Below the pieces are notes generated by a model. It was not told the DNA's origin and did not search any database. It worked only from the letters and a program-made list of their open reading frames with translations. This document shows positions 49,598 to 62,221 of a stretch of 64,000 bases of DNA, piece by piece (within the stretch, counting starts at the first letter, position 1; every line of letters begins with the position of its first letter). The translations under genes were made by a program, and so were the position numbers. The stretch is from a phage. The stretch lies in the sequence record PZ452591.1; one strand, 5' to 3'.

Positions 49598-49813
49598 TTA
49601 CCCCAGTTTGACCATACAATCGCCGTATTTCCACTTAGAAATAGACTTTTCGCCGTTAGAATAATAAACTTCGAGTTTAGCACGATTATTTTTAATTTGA
49701 ATAACCTTGGCTGTCATTAAAGTTCCATACCCATAGTAAACTGCAACTTCATCACCTACATATACCGCGCTTCCGCGGTAATCATGGATATAATCAGTTC
49801 CTTCGAGCATCAT
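49598..49813 (-). CDS. hypothetical protein (71 aa)
   Basis: ATGA overlap with nrdC. Confidence 0.5.
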   Translation of the reverse strand: MMLEGTDYIHDYRGSAVYVGDEVAVYYGYGTLMTAKVIQIKNNRAKLEVYYSNGEKSISKWKYGDCMVKLG

Positions 49814-50073
49814 TTAAAGTATTCCCGCAATTGGTCAAATCCACCAATATGACTTCCATCAGGAGCAAATACCTGAGGCATTGTCAAGCCAATTTGAGTA
49901 TCACGACCTAGTTTAGTCAGAAGCTCAGCAATTTTCTCATCGTCAAAAACACCTTTTTCCGGCATAATGTTGATAAACTCAAACGGCTGTTTCTTCACGG
50001 TCAAAAGACGTTTTGCATTATCGCAATACACACATTTATGGATGTTGCTATCATAACCATATACTTTAAACAT
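49810..50073 (-). CDS. nrdC: NrdC thioredoxin (87 aa)
   Basis: Active site CVYC; protein recognised as T4 NrdC. Confidence 0.85.
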   Translation of the reverse strand: MFKVYGYDSNIHKCVYCDNAKRLLTVKKQPFEFINIMPEKGVFDDEKIAELLTKLGRDTQIGLTMPQVFAPDGSHIGGFDQLREYFK

Positions 50074-50074
50074 A

Positions 50075-50317
50075 TTATTCCTTAATTCCTAGTACTTGTT
50101 TAAAAGTCTCGTCGTAATCAAGACTTTGGCCCGTTTGTTCTTTATGTTTGTATATAATATCACTTACTTCTGATAGCATATTTTTATATGAACGAGTTAA
50201 AGCAGATTTAAGCACGCTGTATCTATCAGGAAATTTACCGTGTTCATTATAATAAGCTATTGCTAATTCACGGACTGCCTTTTCGGCAGTCTCCATATAT
50301 TCTTTACGCTTGGTCAT
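50075..50317 (-). CDS. hypothetical protein (80 aa)
   Basis: ATG at 50317; track start is TTG. Confidence 0.5.
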
Positions 50318-50618
50318 TTTCTTCTCGGTCAAATCGGTGTTTACAATGGCGACATTTATAACGAAGATTATTAGTCTGCCAATGGACTAATTGCACCTGT
50401 TCAGTTCCACATTCAGGGCAATTAGGAACGTTTTTAGAAGCACGTTCGCGGCGTTCAACCATGACCATTACAGAATCCCAATTAATAGGGCTGCTATAAT
50501 CATCACAACCATGAATCTTTCCACGCATTTCCAGATCGTCTTCTTCACCAGCCATAATAATTTTAATTAGACTAGAATTACTTGAAGCTGCAATGTCTTC
50601 TAATAGACGCTTTTTCAT
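50304..50618 (-). CDS. hypothetical zinc-ribbon protein (104 aa)
   Basis: CPECG...CRHCKH. Confidence 0.5.
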
Positions 50619-51544
50619 TTCAATACCTCAATAGCATTACGTAAACCATTTGCTTTTGCATTAAGAGCTTTTAACAATTTGGTGTGTTCTTCAATTTGGG
50701 CTTCAACTTCAATCAAACGAGCATTGAGATATTCACGTTCTTCGCTCAAGTTATCAACCTTTTCTACTTTAGGTTCTTTTACAACTGGCTTATACGTATT
50801 AGGGTTCTTCAGTTTAATTAGAATGCGTGAACTGTATAACATTGAACCATTATCTTCGGTTTCATCATACATTTCTACTACGTCCATGATTTTTAACATC
50901 ATGCGAAGTTTATAAGACAACGAACGAATAGTTTTGTTGTGCTTATTAATTTCTCTAGCTGTCATGGTGCCGAGATTACGTGAGTAATAATAAGGAACCT
51001 GGATATTAATTAATACTGATGAACCACCTGGCTTGTGTGTTACTTCATCAGCAATAACCCAGTCCTTAACATGAACTGTATTTGTACGGTCATCGCCCAT
51101 GGTAAACAGTTTGCGAGCATGCTTAAAAAGCATATTCACTTGAGTATTGAATTGACAAGCAAATTTATCAGCAAATTTAGTTTCAGGAATGGTAGATAAC
51201 CAATCAGCCAAATGGGTCTTTTTAACATCGTTAATAATAGTAAATTCAACCAAATCGGTTATAGATGTCGCAGATTTAATGAAGCTCGGCTTCATAAAGT
51301 TTTTAATGTTATCGCGAGCTACAGTAGAAGATAACATACGAGAACGTTTAAACCATTCAAGCAAATTGCCTAACGAATGAGAATAAGCGTTTTGAGTATC
51401 TTTACAGATATGATTTTCCTGGCCAACATATTGAAGGAAATCACGAAGAATATTATTGATTACTGCTCTGTGCCCGATCTGATAATTACGGTGTTTAGTA
51501 ATAAGACTGTCAAAATAATCAATATAATGTTTACGAGTTTTCAT
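50615..51544 (-). CDS. coiled-coil-tailed protein, paralog 1 of 4 (309 aa)
   Basis: Shares a central motif and C-terminal heptad-rich tail with the next three genes. Confidence 0.6.
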   Translation of the reverse strand: MKTRKHYIDYFDSLITKHRNYQIGHRAVINNILRDFLQYVGQENHICKDTQNAYSHSLGNLLEWFKRSRMLSSTVARDNIKNFMKPSFIKSATSITDLVEFTIINDVKKTHLADWLSTIPETKFADKFACQFNTQVNMLFKHARKLFTMGDDRTNTVHVKDWVIADEVTHKPGGSSVLINIQVPYYYSRNLGTMTAREINKHNKTIRSLSYKLRMMLKIMDVVEMYDETEDNGSMLYSSRILIKLKNPNTYKPVVKEPKVEKVDNLSEEREYLNARLIEVEAQIEEHTKLLKALNAKANGLRNAIEVLK

Positions 51545-51596
51545 GTTCTTCTCACTTGGTTAATGGTTTATACTCCGAGCCATCCTTGGCTTTAAA

Positions 51597-52598
51597 TTAC
51601 TTAATTAACTGTAAAGCTTGTTCAAGACGATCCAGGCGATTAACAGATTCTTCCCAAATCCTTTTAGCCTGCTCATATTCTTTCTGTGCTTTATTAGAAA
51701 TTTCTAGAACTTCTTTATAAGCTTTTTCTAGTGCAATAACTTCTGGACGAATTTCTATCGGTTCAGGTGAATCGTCAAGACATTCCATTAGTTCCTCAAG
51801 GGTAGTTTCTTCTTTAGGAGTATTCACAATTTCATCACATTTTTGTTGGTAAATTTCTTTATCAGTCGGTGAGTACGCACACTTTACTTCACGAAGACTA
51901 ACTACAATTTTATATCCTTCCCAACCGCATATATTCTTAAAAGGATAAGTATGAATATTTTCTACTGTTTCCATACAAAGTAATGCAGTCTCTAACTGAC
52001 GAGTTATATCACTAGCAATTGAGAAAAATTTATTAATGTTCTTTTGATTAGCTTCTGGTGTAAAAAATTCATAATTCACAAAAATAGCTACTTTATTTTT
52101 ATCAAGTTCATATTCTTTTATGATAATCATATCAGAAGCCAAAGGATGAATTTGACGATAATCGCCATAGCATAATTTAGAAGCTGATTTCAAAATTTGC
52201 TTCTTGAAAAGTCTAAAATTACTAACCCAACGACGAGTAAAAATATTCTCAGGGTCTTCTTTAATATTAAGATGATAAGAATTAACATCACCGAACCAAT
52301 TGTATCCTACTACATCTTTAGTTCGTTTAATTTCTTTCCCAAATTTACTAAGAATATCTTGATTAACTAAATATGAAAGAAGACGAGACCCTTTAAAGGT
52401 TTCCTTAATATCATCTTTATCTGCACGACTAGAAATTTTATGAACTTCATGAATAAATTTGCTGGAAGAAACAATACTTGCATCAGTATTATTGAGCCAT
52501 TGATTGATAATGGAAATAACGCTATTCTGACTAGACATAGGTTTAACTTTATCATCAATAACGCTATTGAATGATTTGATATATTCGTTACGAGTCAT
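51597..52598 (-). CDS. coiled-coil-tailed protein, paralog 2 of 4 (333 aa)
   Basis: GAGGAG SD then ATG at 52598; track ATG at 52628 lies inside promoter -10. Confidence 0.6.
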   Translation of the reverse strand: MTRNEYIKSFNSVIDDKVKPMSSQNSVISIINQWLNNTDASIVSSSKFIHEVHKISSRADKDDIKETFKGSRLLSYLVNQDILSKFGKEIKRTKDVVGYNWFGDVNSYHLNIKEDPENIFTRRWVSNFRLFKKQILKSASKLCYGDYRQIHPLASDMIIIKEYELDKNKVAIFVNYEFFTPEANQKNINKFFSIASDITRQLETALLCMETVENIHTYPFKNICGWEGYKIVVSLREVKCAYSPTDKEIYQQKCDEIVNTPKEETTLEELMECLDDSPEPIEIRPEVIALEKAYKEVLEISNKAQKEYEQAKRIWEESVNRLDRLEQALQLIK

Positions 52599-52624
52599 AT
52601 TAATCTCCTCAGTAGAAAGTAAGA

Positions 52625-52660
52625 ACATTATACCACATCCTTGTGGCGAAGTAAACTAGT
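52625..52660 (-). promoter_or_regulatory. early promoter (-35 GTTTAC 52651-52656, -10 TATAAT 52627-52632)
   Basis: Read directly; overlaps stop of paralog 3. Confidence 0.45.
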
Positions 52661-53675
52661 TTAGTGCATTTAGTGCATTATTCAGTTTAGAACGTTGCTT
52701 TGCCAGATTTTGAACCCTTGACTGAGCTTGTTCTAACACCTTTTCAGCTTCTAGCACTTCATTGGTCGCTTTAACGAGTTCATCATCTACTGCCTTGATA
52801 GACTTCTCAATCGCATCCGCGTGCCATTTTTCAACGGGTTTAAGACTCGGATTTTCAACAGGAAGAAAATTCACTTTATTGAATTTCCATGCATCTTTAT
52901 TACCTGAACTATACATCCAAAATTTAGGATCGTTTGATGAGTAATTAGATAAATTTAAGTTATCTTGCACTTCTTGCTTTTTCTCTTGCGGGACTTCGTC
53001 CTTTCTCAAAAAATCGTATTTAAATGAAACGACCATATCAAGTTCATATGTTGTTGTATGTTCCCAATTTCGCTCAAAACGAGGTAAAATCTTAGAATGA
53101 ACAGCGGCAACAACATCCATATACTTAAATGCTTCTGTCAACTGCGATTTAAGGCATTCACAAATTGAAAGAGAATTTTTTGTATTAGGTTTAAAGCTAA
53201 TTCGCGCAGTTCTATTATTTTCTTTTAATGGTCTTACTTCCATCTGAAGAGTATAACCATCAAATTTCAGGTTCTTTAAGTTAATGTCAGAACCTTTTAA
53301 TCGACTAGCCGTCGACAAAATTTGCTTTAATTGTTTACGGAATAGAGCAATAAATCTCCATTCAATACGATAATGATTTGGATTGAAAAATCCAGATGAT
53401 AAATCGACCTTACTCTGACCAACACCTTGAACAAATAGAGGATTTTTATAATCAATAGTTTTACAGAAATCGGTGAGCTGCTCACGAGCAGTCATTTGTG
53501 TAATATACCCCGCTTTACTAAAATGACGTAATAATTCACTGCTATTTAGATATTTAAAGTGAATAGCACGATTAACTTTATCAGGGTCTAAATTATTTTC
53601 ACACAAAAATGTCATAACATTACGAGTATCGCTGCCAGTACGAACCATATCTTCAATTTGAGAACGAGTTTTCAT
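52656..53675 (-). CDS. coiled-coil-tailed protein, paralog 3 of 4 (339 aa)
   Basis: AAGGAA SD; shared motifs. Confidence 0.6.
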   Translation of the reverse strand: MKTRSQIEDMVRTGSDTRNVMTFLCENNLDPDKVNRAIHFKYLNSSELLRHFSKAGYITQMTAREQLTDFCKTIDYKNPLFVQGVGQSKVDLSSGFFNPNHYRIEWRFIALFRKQLKQILSTASRLKGSDINLKNLKFDGYTLQMEVRPLKENNRTARISFKPNTKNSLSICECLKSQLTEAFKYMDVVAAVHSKILPRFERNWEHTTTYELDMVVSFKYDFLRKDEVPQEKKQEVQDNLNLSNYSSNDPKFWMYSSGNKDAWKFNKVNFLPVENPSLKPVEKWHADAIEKSIKAVDDELVKATNEVLEAEKVLEQAQSRVQNLAKQRSKLNNALNALN

Positions 53676-53683
53676 GGTGTTCC

Positions 53684-54574
53684 TTAAGATTTAAGTAAAT
53701 CAACAATTTTAATTAACTTTTCACGCTCAGATTTAGCTTTACTACTCAGTCCAGATAGTCTGAAAATTTCATCATCATATTGTTGAATAGAAATATTCAG
53801 CTCTTCAATCTGTTTATTAAAATAATCAATTTGTTCAGAATGTTTTTCGTTACTACGAAATGGTACAGGTTTTGTAGGCAATTTAGTTGAATTGGATTCA
53901 TCCGGGCGATAAATTAAAATACAACTTGAACCAATCGGACATTTAGCACCAGATGAATATTCTAACGTTCCAGCTTCTTTTAAAACTTCAAAAGCTAAAC
54001 AGAGATGATGCCCCATATTAACATAATCAGTAGAGCGAGCTCTGACGTAATAATCATCTCCACGAGTGCTAAATTTAAAGCATTTAAGGTCTTCTGTATT
54101 ATTAGTTTTAAAAATCATTTGTTTATCTAGACCTTTAGCCAATCGAGCGCCTAATGCTAATAATCGTCGTTGATTTTCCCACAAATCCGCAATCATTTGG
54201 TCAAATGATAATTTCGGCATTAGTCGACCATAAAGGTCATATCCTTTATTATAATTGCGAAGGATTTCACTCGCGTTAATACGAGACAATGCTCCAATTT
54301 TATTAAGGGCTTTCATAATACGATTAGATAAACTCATTCCAGATCCGTTTGTTCGCTGCAAATGTTTATCTAATCCAAACCCAATATCAACTTTAAATTT
54401 ATCTAAAATTTCAGCATGAACATCTCTGTCAATAACATTCAAATCCAAAGTTGTGTTAAATCTATGAAAAAATTTATCTGGCTCTCCACGACGAAATACA
54501 GTCCATTCATTCATCATTTTTTTATTAACTAAAGATTTAATTACTGCATTGACATTATTAATTACGACTGACAT
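53684..54574 (-). CDS. coiled-coil-tailed protein, paralog 4 of 4 (296 aa)
   Basis: GAGGAAAAT SD then ATG at 54574; track start is TTG. Confidence 0.6.
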   Translation of the reverse strand: MSVVINNVNAVIKSLVNKKMMNEWTVFRRGEPDKFFHRFNTTLDLNVIDRDVHAEILDKFKVDIGFGLDKHLQRTNGSGMSLSNRIMKALNKIGALSRINASEILRNYNKGYDLYGRLMPKLSFDQMIADLWENQRRLLALGARLAKGLDKQMIFKTNNTEDLKCFKFSTRGDDYYVRARSTDYVNMGHHLCLAFEVLKEAGTLEYSSGAKCPIGSSCILIYRPDESNSTKLPTKPVPFRSNEKHSEQIDYFNKQIEELNISIQQYDDEIFRLSGLSSKAKSEREKLIKIVDLLKS

Positions 54575-55575: not shown

Positions 55576-55640
55576 GTGTTCCTCCGTAGTTGATAGTTGT
55601 ATAGTACCACAGAGGAACAGTCTTGTAAACAACTAAAAGA
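55576..55640 (-). promoter_or_regulatory. early promoter cassette with flanking inverted repeat (PeSL-like); -35 GTTTAC 55625-55630
   Basis: TGTTCCTC 55577-55584 / GAGGAACA 55612-55619 bracket the -10. Confidence 0.5.
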
Positions 55641-56036: not shown

Positions 56037-57005
56037 TTATTTCAGAAGAGTAACCTCAGCGATTTCTTCCCAACCGTTTTTGTCGGTCATAATAAAGTCA
56101 GCAAGATAAAGAGCAGTACGCAGTGAAACATTGCGTAAACGATTAACATTGACTTTCATCCATGATAATGCTTTATAAGTTTCTTCATCAGAAAGACCGC
56201 GCTTTTGCATCATGTCGGTTGAAAGAATAACATCTTCAACCCTGACCATAATTTCTTCATTAGTGTGAACACCCAAATCTAAATAAACTGAGCGGGACAC
56301 TAATGCTTGTAAATGTGGAGCAAGTTTAGTACCACGGTCTAATTCGCGGTCAATGTCAACGTTTGTGATAAAAACAATCGTTCCTTTAAATTCAAACTCA
56401 CGCTCAATGCCTTTTTCTTCTAAGTAAGAAGATGCAGTGCTCCAGCAGACTTTACGGGTCTCTCCAGTGTCCAGAGCAGCTTTCAGAAGATTAAGAATGT
56501 CCATATCAGAGAAAACATCCACATCATCAATCAAAAGGACAGAATTCTCTTCACGATTATTCCAAAGCTGTTCATAAAGACCGATACCAGAGATTTTACC
56601 ATTAATGCTTTTATATTCAATGTATCCAATATCATTTGCTTTATTTAAAGCTTTATCCAAAGAATACGTTTTACCAATACCTGCTGCTCCCGAGATAATT
56701 AATGAACGAATGTTTCCGTTAATAATACCATTCGTCATCATTCCCATAACATTAAATCTTTTATTAATGCGGGTTTTCATATCTTCATATGATTCTTTAA
56801 CTTCTTCAACTTTTACACCATCATATGAAATGTCTGATTTGTAAACCCAAACACCGCGACGCTTACCGTCAATTTCAACAAAAACTTTACCATCTCCTTG
56901 TGCATCCACCGGAGCATTATCTGGGAACCATTCACCTAAGAGCTCAAAAGTTCCAGAGATTTCTTTACCGAAGTAGATACCCTTATTGATAGTTACAGTT
57001 TTCAT
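56037..57005 (-). CDS. P-loop ATPase (AAA-like), 322 aa
   Basis: Walker A GAAGIGKT, Walker B VLLIDDVD; GGAGAATAAA SD then ATG at 57005. Confidence 0.65.
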   Translation of the reverse strand: MKTVTINKGIYFGKEISGTFELLGEWFPDNAPVDAQGDGKVFVEIDGKRRGVWVYKSDISYDGVKVEEVKESYEDMKTRINKRFNVMGMMTNGIINGNIRSLIISGAAGIGKTYSLDKALNKANDIGYIEYKSINGKISGIGLYEQLWNNREENSVLLIDDVDVFSDMDILNLLKAALDTGETRKVCWSTASSYLEEKGIEREFEFKGTIVFITNVDIDRELDRGTKLAPHLQALVSRSVYLDLGVHTNEEIMVRVEDVILSTDMMQKRGLSDEETYKALSWMKVNVNRLRNVSLRTALYLADFIMTDKNGWEEIAEVTLLK

Positions 57006-57009
57006 TTTA

Positions 57010-57075
57010 TTCTCCAAATCCATATCAGTTGATAGTTGTATAGTACCATAAAGCTTTATGCTTGTAAACCGTTTT
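57010..57075 (-). promoter_or_regulatory. early promoter cassette (-35 GTTTAC 57064-57069)
   Basis: Conserved core CAGTTGATAGTTGTATAGTACCA plus long A/T UP tract. Confidence 0.5.
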
Positions 57076-57095: not shown

Positions 57096-57120
57096 TAAAA
57101 AGGGAGCCCGAAGGCTCCCT
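57096..57120 (-). terminator. CUUCGG-type hairpin terminator after nucleotidyltransferase gene
   Basis: AGGGAGCC-CGAA-GGCTCCCT then UUUUUAUUUU on minus RNA. Confidence 0.6.
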
Positions 57121-57121
57121 A

Positions 57122-58135
57122 TCATTTATAATAACTTCGATGGTTTTCAAGATAGACTTTCTCAAGGAAGTCATCCCAAAAACCCATGTCCACTTTTTGC
57201 TGCATACCGTTCTTAGAAGCTTCAGTAGATGCTGCTTCTACTTGATCGACCACATCTTCCAAAAACTCTTGAACGGTTTTAAATGGATGTTTACCCAACT
57301 TCACGTCGAGAATAAATGGAGCGTCTTGAAGTGGATAAACCAAGTCGCCAGTTTTGTAAATTTCCAATAGTTGAAGTCCACCACGACAGGCATGGCTCAG
57401 AGCTTTCCAGTCAATGCCTTCGTTGGCTTCGGCCTTACGAGCGCGTTCACCATATTCAGCATCTAATTTGTTCAGTGACTGCTTAATCTCAATAAGAGAA
57501 AGCGTTGTCTGATATTTACGACCCAACACAGTGTAGAACGTTTGTGGGCCTGTTTTCTCATGATTATGGAACACCCATTCACAGAATTCATTTTCTGGAA
57601 GACGATGCTTAATATCTTCAACTTTAGTGCGACGCTGCTTAATAGAACCATCTTCTTGGTAATCAACCCATTGCTCGGGGATTTGATTAACTACTTTCAA
57701 TACATCACGTAATGCAGCCAAACGAGAACCCTTGACACCGTATTTAGAAGCTTGCTTGCGAACATATCCTAAATATGATTTCATGTTAGTCGTATAAAAA
57801 CGAGAACGGTTGTCTTGAATAAACTTCCACACGTCAGGCAAATCAGATTTAACCACTAGTTCAGGTGGAGTGTGAAGCATATCTAATGCTACAGTTTCAC
57901 CATCTGCTGCTAATTTAAAGAAATACTTAAGACTATACAATTCGTGGTCAATATCATCTTTAGTGTTTTTAGATGATGTGTTGTTAGTGTTTTTACTCAT
58001 GTGCTCTTTAACGTTTCCGATAAGAATATCGCGAGCAGGAGGAACAAAAATTTCTTTAAAATCTACATCAGATTCTGGGGTAGAAGTTCCATAAAGATGA
58101 CTACCAAAATAGCTTTTCATTACTGTTTTCATCAT
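57122..58135 (-). CDS. Pol-beta-superfamily nucleotidyltransferase-like protein (337 aa)
   Basis: N-terminal GS-x9-SDVD-F motif (GSHLYGTSTPESDVDF); ATGA overlap with upstream membrane-protein gene. Confidence 0.6.
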   Translation of the reverse strand: MMKTVMKSYFGSHLYGTSTPESDVDFKEIFVPPARDILIGNVKEHMSKNTNNTSSKNTKDDIDHELYSLKYFFKLAADGETVALDMLHTPPELVVKSDLPDVWKFIQDNRSRFYTTNMKSYLGYVRKQASKYGVKGSRLAALRDVLKVVNQIPEQWVDYQEDGSIKQRRTKVEDIKHRLPENEFCEWVFHNHEKTGPQTFYTVLGRKYQTTLSLIEIKQSLNKLDAEYGERARKAEANEGIDWKALSHACRGGLQLLEIYKTGDLVYPLQDAPFILDVKLGKHPFKTVQEFLEDVVDQVEAASTEASKNGMQQKVDMGFWDDFLEKVYLENHRSYYK

Positions 58136-61639: not shown

Positions 61640-62221
61640 CTAACCGAGCTTTTTAGTTAATTCATTCCAATGTTTTCTACACAAGGAAACATAAATTTCA
61701 TCACCAATACAGATTTGATTACCTTCTTTAACTGGTGTTCCATCTTCCATTAATCGAGCTGTCATAATCGCTTTTTTGCCGCAATGACAAACTGCCTTTA
61801 GTTCAATAAGTTTATCTGCAATCGCTAAAAGTTCTTTAGAACCTTCAAACAATTTTCCAGCGAAATCAGTCCTTAATCCATAAGCCATAACAGGAACATT
61901 ATATGTATCAACAATTCGGCTCAATTGATGCACCTGTTCAGTTTTTAAAAACTGGGCTTCATCTACAAATACGCAATGAATATCTTTTTGTGCTTCAGCC
62001 CATTTATAGAACTCGAAAATATCCATATCATCTGTAATAATATTTGCTTCCTGCCTAATTCCAATGCGAGAAACGACTTCACAGACAGAATCGCGAGTAT
62101 CAATAGCAGGCTTAAGAACTAATACACTCATTCCACGTTCTTTATAATTGTGCGCAGCAGTCAAAAGAGAAGCAGATTTTCCAGCATTCATTGCTGCATA
62201 AGTAAAAATTAAACTCGCCAT
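61640..62221 (-). CDS. tk: thymidine kinase (193 aa)
   Basis: P-loop NAGKSAS; C-terminal zinc-binding CHCGKKA...C..C; matches T4 Tk. Confidence 0.9.
   Translation of the reverse strand: MASLIFTYAAMNAGKSASLLTAAHNYKERGMSVLVLKPAIDTRDSVCEVVSRIGIRQEANIITDDMDIFEFYKWAEAQKDIHCVFVDEAQFLKTEQVHQLSRIVDTYNVPVMAYGLRTDFAGKLFEGSKELLAIADKLIELKAVCHCGKKAIMTARLMEDGTPVKEGNQICIGDEIYVSLCRKHWNELTKKLG

Follow-up and report, generated by a model that had tools for sequence, protein, structure and literature searches.

Phage T4 is the best-studied lytic phage and, to our knowledge, most of its roughly 130 accessory genes are still without a function. Among phage proteins that counter host immunity, DSAD1, from Bacillus phage SPbeta, engages DSR2 at its C-terminal sensor region and competes with the structural-protein trigger. 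For T4 nrdC.5, an evolved deletion clone of T4 had lost the ability to grow on hosts with the SIR2 defence gene dsr1, and nrdC.5 expressed alone restored its growth on these cells (Srikant, Guegler & Laub, eLife 2022; PMC9391042). The paper gives no mechanism and does not mention any kinship with nrdC.3, nrdC.4 or nrdC.6 (PMC9391042). The sensor of Dsr1 recognises phage major capsid proteins (PMC13581612), and two neighbours of the block are themselves defence inhibitors: gp49.2 inhibits OLD (PMC13096335) and NrdC.1 inhibits Septu (bioRxiv 10.1101/2025.11.20.689424). Here, we analysed nrdC.3, nrdC.4, nrdC.5 and nrdC.6 in 64,000 nucleotides (nt) of phage DNA (sequence record PZ452591.1; this whole stretch is referred to as the window), for which an initial annotation made from the sequence had proposed a tandem array of four paralogous genes. 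The genes, the nrdC.3/nrdC.4 family and the anti-Dsr1 activity of nrdC.5 are already known; new here are the four-way superfamily link, its reach to distant T4-like phages, the common architecture and a functional prediction for the other three genes. No description of the four-way relationship was found in the searched literature on these genes, the 2003 T4 genome review lying outside that search.

The window phage is T4-like and belongs to the genus Tequatrovirus, a 4.4-kb query matching 657 phage records with a best identity of 96.6%. T4 strain GT7 is substantially different in one gene of the array, and the window phage is therefore not T4 itself. Four consecutive open reading frames (ORFs) of 309, 333, 339 and 296 amino acids (aa) are present where the initial annotation had placed them, all on the minus strand and, as it had also stated, in the interval between the glutaredoxin gene nrdC (49810–50073) and the thymidine kinase gene tk (61640–62221). 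Their names are those of the syntenic genes annotated in RB32 and T2:

50615–51544, minus strand: nrdC.3, 309 aa, assigned as an ORF and by synteny; PHROG 1435 at 1.1e-116; mosaic allele
51597–52598, minus strand: nrdC.4, 333 aa from the second ATG, stop included; PHROG 1435 at 7.8e-167
52656–53675, minus strand: nrdC.5, 339 aa; PF23882 (DUF7235) at 2.1e-123
53684–54574, minus strand: nrdC.6, 296 aa; PHROG 2257 at 3.5e-150; PF26899 (Phage_T4_Y05B) via orthologs

All four are preceded by a good ribosome-binding site (GAGGAG in front of the nrdC.4 ATG at 52598), which, with the purifying selection described below, marks them as real genes.

Profile-based comparison confirmed, at the level of sequence, that the four genes form one superfamily of old, strongly diverged paralogs rather than being alike in composition. 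Whole-protein identity among the four is only about 15–25%. By BLASTP, nrdC.3 and nrdC.4 matched each other (E=5e-7, 23% identity over 270 residues) and none of the remaining five pairs was significant; pairwise comparison alone would therefore have wrongly rejected the paralogy. Word-indexed homolog searches recovered close family members only and left the nrdC.5 family very shallow (at least 80% identity, save one protein at 38%). When family hidden Markov models (HMMs) were run against the window ORFs, that of nrdC.4 recognised NrdC.3 (1.6e-16), and no model matched a protein of another family. Profile–profile alignment by hhalign joined the nrdC.4 and nrdC.3 families at E=7e-14, and the merged nrdC.3/4 profile aligned with nrdC.5 at E=6.5e-5 over 146 core columns, the tail being excluded. 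The initial annotation had allowed that the similarity might be compositional only; against a null of 60 column-shuffled target alignments of unchanged composition, the latter comparison scored 45.4 as opposed to 14.3±2.2, with none of the 60 shuffles approaching the observed value. Two comparisons with nrdC.6 reached about 23 over a null of about 14.7±2.3 (z about 3.3–4), a direct profile signal that is suggestive only of its membership.

Bridging proteins close this gap. A four-family profile searched against 1.84 billion representative proteins returned 28 proteins at E≤1e-3, confining the family to T4-like phages. Several of the relatives match more than one family HMM: P0233 is hit by those of nrdC.5 (8.9e-12) and nrdC.6 (4.4e-16), P0241 by the same two (1.1e-8 and 1.4e-15), and P0232 by those of nrdC.3 (1.9e-7), nrdC.4 (4.6e-8) and nrdC.5 (1.9e-12), the three aligning by hhalign with 92–98% probability over 195–260 columns. 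P0243 and P0246 also connect nrdC.5 with nrdC.6, as does gp092 of Pectobacterium phage PM2, which matches both families and adjoins the PM2 nrdC.2 gene. The link from nrdC.3/4 to nrdC.6 is transitive only, with a direct signal of z about 4, and nrdC.6 is the weakest link, resting on intermediates, fold matches and synteny. Taken together, HMM matches, profile–profile alignment with its shuffle control, bridging proteins that match two or three family HMMs and the fold match described below bear out the proposed paralogy of the four genes.

Several other proteins were considered as members and rejected. NrdC.8, which has a charged helical tail too, reached an hhalign probability of at most 1% and serves as a negative control; NrdC.7, NrdC.9 and NrdC.2 fell within the same limit, and PM2 gp095 and Acj9p126 were likewise discarded as extra members.

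An alignment of 22 sequences, comprising the four window proteins and 18 diverse relatives, placed three core motifs (M1, M2 and M3), a P-x-V/I motif and a C-terminal heptad helix in register across all members. The central motif described initially (M2) is real and colinear, reading KFACQFNTQVNMLFKHARKL, RWVSNFRLFKKQILKSASKL, RFIALFRKQLKQILSTASRL and QMIADLWENQRRLLALGARL in nrdC.3, nrdC.4, nrdC.5 and nrdC.6, respectively, and terminating in A-S-[KR]-L-x-x-G. So is the second motif (M3; IMDVV, CMETV, YMDVV and FEVLK, in the same gene order). A further motif that the initial annotation had missed, M1, is better than the others; it reads FKRSRMLSSTVARDNIKNFMK, FKGSRLLSYLVNQDILSKFGK, FSKAGYITQMTAREQLTDFCK and LNKIGALSRINASEILRNYNK (again nrdC.3 to nrdC.6), with the consensus [FL]-x-[KR]-x-G/R-x-L-S-x-x-x-A-x-x-x-L-x-x-[FY]-x-K. 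The three motifs define the core of each gene:

50870–51352, minus strand: nrdC.3 core, with M1 at aa 65–85, M2 at 127–153 and M3 at 213–225
51957–52397, minus strand: nrdC.4 core, with M1 at aa 68–88, M2 at 123–148 and M3 at 202–214
53103–53522, minus strand: nrdC.5 core, with M1 at aa 52–72, M2 at 107–132 and M3 at 179–191; spanned by the hhalign alignment with nrdC.3/4
53966–54307, minus strand: nrdC.6 core, with M1 at aa 90–110, M2 at 126–151 and M3 at 191–203

In the tail, the P-x-V/I motif precedes a heptad-rich helix terminating in L-x-x-h-h-x-h-L-K, and the extreme C-terminus, likewise overlooked at first, is common to all four proteins (AIEVLK, ALQLIK, ALNALN and IVDLLKS):

50618–50791, minus strand: nrdC.3 tail, with a K-P-V motif, a heptad helix and the AIEVLK end; heptad score 0.82 over aa 259–309
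51600–51767, minus strand: nrdC.4 tail, with a P-E-P-I motif, a heptad helix and the ALQLIK end; heptad score 0.68
52659–52841, minus strand: nrdC.5 tail, with a K-P-V-E-K motif, a helix at aa 280–338 and the ALNALN end; heptad score 0.90 over aa 281–339
53687–53872, minus strand: nrdC.6 tail, with a K-P-V-P motif, a helical hairpin (aa 243–272 and 278–295) and the IVDLLKS end

The heptad score is a crude measure of periodicity, and the nrdC.6 tail only just reaches the threshold of 0.60, as does a segment near the N-terminus (aa 67–98). Together with AlphaFold helices in NrdC.5 and NrdC.6, the four scores support the C-terminal heptad-rich tails that had been proposed. The claim that the N-terminal ~100 residues differ between copies holds in part: the divergence is real, and it spans approximately residues 15 to 50–90, while the first ~10 residues, a short helix starting M-K-T-R-x-x-h-I, are common to nrdC.3, nrdC.4 and nrdC.5. 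The variable stretch cannot be aligned and is wholly missing in distant nrdC.5 relatives. A linker of variable length precedes the tail; it has low confidence in the models and is partly disordered.

An AlphaFold2 model of NrdC.6 (predicted local distance difference test score (pLDDT) 76.6; predicted template-modelling score (pTM) 0.64) comprises a helical domain, a beta-beta-alpha-beta-beta unit and a helical hairpin. M1 falls in helices 82–92 and 95–107, M2 in helices 124–133 and 135–145, and M3 is carried by the helix of the beta-beta-alpha-beta-beta unit. The NrdC.5 model, built from an alignment of eight sequences, is poor (pLDDT 47); helix 280–338 is its sole confident part, with pLDDT means of 10-residue blocks climbing from 59 to 88, and the order of secondary-structure elements is identical to that in the NrdC.6 model. 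A Foldseek search of BFVD with the NrdC.6 model returned full-length matches to proteins of 304–335 aa from seven phages (E 3.5e-7 to 5e-4; TM-scores of 0.42–0.49 for six of them and 0.22 for that of Citrobacter phage Merlin), whose listed hosts are Pectobacterium, Enterobacter, Acinetobacter, Citrobacter and Klebsiella. Both matches that were placed in their genomes are syntenic: PM2 gp092 lies by nrdC.2, and Acj9p122 of Acinetobacter phage Acj9 lies between gene 49 and nrdC.10. Acj9p122 is undetectable by sequence, its link consisting of fold and synteny only. PDB-wide fold and HMM searches found no solved structure resembling the NrdC.6 model.

Across the 22 members no polar residue is invariant, conservation being confined to the end of the tail, a single basic position and positions that are hydrophobic; binding proteins are therefore favoured over enzymes. 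Domain searches of the four proteins found no known enzymatic or nucleic-acid-binding domain. Residues 30–86 of NrdC.3 (window 51287–51457) weakly resemble the SAM-like domain found at the N-terminus of tyrosine recombinases, probably by chance (E=0.075 in Pfam and 0.001 in NCBIfam, both well short of the family cut-offs).

Matches to nrdC.3, nrdC.4, nrdC.5 and nrdC.6 were found in 654, 554, 582 and 742 phage records, respectively, and a genome carries at most one copy of each type. Among the genomes examined, nrdC.3 and nrdC.4 stand side by side only in Tequatrovirus. Mosigvirus mogra carries the nrdC.6, nrdC.5 and nrdC.3 types, and MN01, ABTNLsp5 and one metagenome contig have, in order, nrdC.6, an ORF of 67–71 aa, nrdC.5 and a single nrdC.4-type gene. 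This small ORF between the nrdC.6-type and nrdC.5-type genes (L003 7133–7348, L004 6855–7058 and L005 6826–7041) is missing from the window, where nrdC.6 and nrdC.5 are only 8 nt apart. The three main types (nrdC.3/4, nrdC.5 and nrdC.6) therefore diverged before several Tevenvirinae genera split, with their order kept. All four genes are under purifying selection, with ratios of non-synonymous to synonymous divergence (dN/dS) of 0.12–0.35, somewhat above those of nrdC or nrdC.10. The typical diversified tandem array that the initial annotation had seen in the block is thus not supported, and the block is no fast copy-number array: the types are old, their order is conserved, no genome has more than one copy of each, and selection is purifying.

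Among nrdC.3 alleles, the most variable region is central and not N-terminal. Two allele classes of nrdC.3, each of ~290 records, differ by a swapped central cassette. In the window, NrdC.3 is a mosaic whose residues 1 to ~70 are T4-type (86–95% identical to T4 GT7) and whose residues ~75–270 share just 33–63% identity with T4, their closest counterpart being that of Mosigvirus phage mogra (up to 97%). Synonymous divergence of nrdC.3 from T4 is ~1.0, compared to 0.07–0.2 in neighbouring genes, and the allele is a mosaic, both of which point to cassette exchange rather than fast local evolution. Each gene of the block also has a different closest database match (FL33, Yersinia phage PST, ECML-123-2 and Shigella phage SH7), which suggests gene-by-gene recombination within the block.

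Natural isolates carry further rearrangements. Phage T2 has nrdC.4 and nrdC.6 each split in two (L002 4191–5130 and 6278–7111), with nrdC.3 and nrdC.5 intact. In ACG-C40 the region from the start of nrdC.5 through the end of nrdC.3 is deleted, leaving a frameshifted junction (L008 6305–6716) and only nrdC.6. P0056 is an nrdC.5::nrdC.3 fusion (residues 1–129 from NrdC.5; residues 120–299 94% identical to the window NrdC.3), P0239 carries an unrelated head of 120 aa on the last 53 residues of NrdC.5, and P0121 is an NrdC.6 with residues 177–259 duplicated. With its deletions, fusions, pseudogenes and cassette swap, the block is plastic in nature and behaves like a set of accessory genes.

A search of the minus strand for the T4-type early-promoter pattern GTTTAC-17-TGGTA(T/C)(A/T)AT, in which a hit denotes a consensus match only, gave three sites:

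52627–52655, minus strand: predicted early promoter before nrdC.4, GTTTAC-17-TGGTATAAT, with 10 of 12 consensus matches and a TG extension
55601–55629, minus strand: predicted early promoter before nrdC.8, a consensus match
57040–57068, minus strand: predicted early promoter before nrdC.10, a consensus match

The first of these, between the nrdC.5 stop and the nrdC.4 start, agrees with the internal promoter that had been claimed at 52625–52660. A longer, 343-aa version of the nrdC.4 ORF begins inside its –10 box, and because the promoter overlaps this longer start, the second ATG (333 aa) was taken as the start of nrdC.4. The site at 52627–52655 would begin a unit of nrdC.4, nrdC.3, nrdC.2, nrdC.1 and nrdC, and that at 55601–55629 would drive nrdC.8, nrdC.7, nrdC.6 and nrdC.5 (gaps of 55, 7 and 8 nt). 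Given the promoter sites and the gaps of 7–8 nt or overlaps elsewhere, the array is apparently split between two early transcription units.

Other features of the surrounding DNA were noted in passing. Over 21 nt that take in the –10 box and leader (TGGTACTATACAACTATCAAC), the predicted promoters of nrdC.10 and nrdC.8 are identical, which places a direct repeat on either side of nrdC.10 and nrdC.9 through which these two genes could be deleted. The nrdC.11 gene is separated from the nrdC.10 promoter by a strong terminator-like hairpin (AGGGAGCC-TTCG-GGCTCCCT; 57101–57120), with a T-run after it on the minus strand. With its two Cys-x-x-Cys pairs and its weak similarity to many zinc-ribbon families, NrdC.2 (50304–50618) is probably a small zinc-ribbon protein. 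NrdC.10 (56037–57023) weakly matches, below cut-off, AAA and STAND-type NTPase domains, and NrdC.11 (57122–58135) matches the RlaP nucleotidyltransferase family.

What these proteins do is best approached through NrdC.5. The window NrdC.5 is 93% identical to that of T4 GT7, occupies the same position and has the same DUF7235 domain; the allele tested against ECOR17 Dsr1 was T4's own, from which the window allele differs at ~7% of residues (PMC9391042). We favour a reading that we regard as evenly poised between right and wrong, namely that the four ancient paralogs, restricted to T4-like phages, act as early, dispensable binders that neutralise host immune proteins and have different targets. 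Probably made early, from sigma-70-type early promoters, and dispensable in laboratory hosts, the four proteins would act as stoichiometric binders of host immune proteins. In favour of this reading are the anti-Dsr1 activity of T4 NrdC.5, the recognition of capsid proteins by Dsr1, the defence inhibitors encoded by neighbouring genes, and T4 transposon sequencing, in which all four genes are non-essential in K-12. NrdC.5 would neutralise the SIR2 NADase Dsr1 by binding it before the late capsid protein triggers it, a mechanism that corresponds to the competition between DSAD1 and its trigger, and NrdC.3, NrdC.4 and NrdC.6 would act likewise against other targets. Oligomerisation or docking common to the family would fall to the tail, with the variable segments and the exchangeable central cassette setting target specificity. 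The anti-defence role of nrdC.3, nrdC.4 and nrdC.6, direct binding and the part played by the tail are what we infer from these observations. The specificity-varying family envisaged by the initial annotation thus remains plausible on indirect grounds, namely the anti-Dsr1 activity of T4 NrdC.5 and the cassette-exchange alleles of nrdC.3, even though a typical diversified array is not supported.

An improbable, more far-reaching version would have one phage-specific fold radiate, from enterobacterial to Acinetobacter T4-like phages, into antagonists of pattern-recognition immune proteins, each paralog blocking a different sensor, such as members of the Dsr1/Avs7 group, which respond to the major capsid protein. 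Specificity would then be retuned as central cassettes pass between phage genera, and the tail would be a common module that accepts foreign heads, as in P0239.

Several observations weigh against neutralisation of immune proteins as the common function. In T4 transposon sequencing, the two comparisons examined show no fitness effect of nrdC.3, nrdC.4, nrdC.5 or nrdC.6, and the text of that paper reports no hit for them. A phenotype exists for NrdC.5 alone, and neither a direct nor an indirect mechanism was found in the searched literature. There is no overall positive selection, pairwise dN/dS values all lying below 0.4, and NrdC.6 is 95–99% conserved within the genus, which is unusual for a protein in an arms race. 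The stable composition of the block over long distances would also fit a conserved, housekeeping-like accessory role. Finally, the fold of NrdC.5 is deduced from secondary structure and homology only, its model having a pLDDT of 47.

The strongest competitor, which we consider unlikely but would give an appreciable share of belief, is a role in host takeover that is accessory and not specific to defence, for instance binding of a host factor of nucleic-acid or general metabolism, Dsr1 being affected only indirectly through, e.g., NAD+ supply or the timing of capsid protein production. Purifying selection, the long-range stability of composition and order, the high conservation of NrdC.6, the conserved basic positions in M1 and M2, and the lack of a defence-related phenotype for nrdC.3, nrdC.4 and nrdC.6 in the transposon-sequencing data examined all fit such a role. 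It sits less well with genes that are dispensable in K-12, repeatedly lost or broken in natural isolates and surrounded by experimentally shown defence inhibitors, in a family that occurs only in T4-like phages and in which no known enzymatic or nucleic-acid-binding domain was detected. Distinctly improbable, in our estimate, is that the four proteins form one hetero-oligomeric complex through their related coiled-coil tails and serve a single function, be it anti-Dsr1 or other. The genes are adjacent, apparently co-transcribed in two early units and conserved in order across genera, and the C-terminal L-x-x-h-h-x-h-L-K and heptad tail, conserved in paralogs and distant relatives, would suit a common partner or mutual pairing. 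However, genomes differ in the subsets they carry: mogra is without nrdC.4, MN01 and ABTNLsp5 are without nrdC.3, PM2 and Acj9 have one detectable member each in the stretches examined, T2 has lost the integrity of nrdC.4 and nrdC.6 but not that of nrdC.3 and nrdC.5, and ACG-C40 retains only nrdC.6. Moreover, plasmid-borne nrdC.5 alone rescued the T4 deletion clone, in which other paralogs may still have been present.

That AT-rich phage proteins with generic coiled-coil tails, encoded by unrelated genes, resemble one another in composition only is scarcely credible: five of six BLASTP pairs are non-significant, the family HMMs do not cross-match other window proteins and coiled coils are known to inflate similarity scores, but the tail-free core of nrdC.3/4 still aligns with nrdC.5 at E=6.5e-5, composition-keeping shuffles never come near the observed score, bridges are recognised by the HMMs of two or three families (1e-7 to 1e-16, 195–260 columns aligned), motifs and secondary-structure elements follow one colinear order, and NrdC.8 shows no relationship despite its own charged helical tail. 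For nrdC.3, nrdC.4 and nrdC.5 this explanation is already refuted. The chance that the proteins are thioredoxin- or glutaredoxin-like and serve redox or nucleotide metabolism, as many GenBank records label them, is close to nil. In phage records 'thioredoxin' is a common label for homologs of nrdC.2 to nrdC.10, yet the domain searches refute it for the four proteins, which match no thioredoxin or glutaredoxin family in Pfam or NCBIfam at E up to 1 or 0.1, window NrdC itself does score as a glutaredoxin, none of the four sequences contains CxxC, and the NrdC.6 model has a different architecture (helical domain, beta-beta-alpha-beta-beta unit and hairpin). Its apparent origin is the gene name nrdC.x, in itself no more than a map position, and on hundreds of phage records the label is wrong.

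If nrdC.3, nrdC.4 and nrdC.6 are indeed remote paralogs of the one known anti-immune gene of the block, they become specific, testable counter-defence candidates. The family would, moreover, offer a natural system for the re-targeting of one inhibitor scaffold through variable segments and an exchangeable cassette on a constant tail. Presence, absence or allele type of the genes may help explain differences in host range among therapeutic T4-like phages.

In existing classifications the four proteins are kept apart. PHROGs groups nrdC.3 with nrdC.4 and gives nrdC.5 and nrdC.6 a family each, and in Pfam each window protein belongs to one of PF26897, PF23882 and PF26899, three separate families of unknown function that are joined here by profile–profile alignment, bridging proteins and a fold match. 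NrdC.5 matches DUF7235 (PF23882) with 412 bits against a gathering cut-off of 30. The PF26897 and PF26899 models gave no match in a direct Pfam scan of the window proteins, and the assignment was made via the precomputed Pfam labels of homologs: nrdC.4 orthologs at 79–97% identity are annotated PF26897 (Phage_T4_Y04OP), and proteins 95–97% identical to the window NrdC.6 are annotated PF26899. PF26897 covers nrdC.3 as well as nrdC.4, its name uniting Y04O (nrdC.3) and Y04P (nrdC.4), and the mostly NrdC.3-like fusion P0056 is also annotated with it.

A functional analogue of NrdC.5 is DSAD1, a phage protein that likewise neutralises a defence-associated sirtuin. The two cases differ in that the target is DSR2 and not Dsr1, the trigger a tail tube and not a capsid protein, and the host of another phylum. 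PDB-wide fold and HMM searches had no DSR2 or DSAD1 chains among the matches listed, the DSAD1 sequence itself not having been compared. As a group, nrdC.3 to nrdC.6 invite comparison with the T4 internal proteins IPI, IPII and IPIII and with the T4 anti-toxin cluster dmd-tifA-adfA, dispensable T-even clusters that selection causes to be lost or amplified and whose members each disarm a different defence of the host; the four paralogs would work similarly. The internal proteins are packaged and injected and have only an N-terminal targeting signal in common, whereas nrdC.3 to nrdC.6 would be produced after infection, as judged from early-promoter matches alone. Likewise, dmd, tifA and adfA are not described as mutual paralogs, in contrast to nrdC.3 to nrdC.6, which are paralogous along their whole length.

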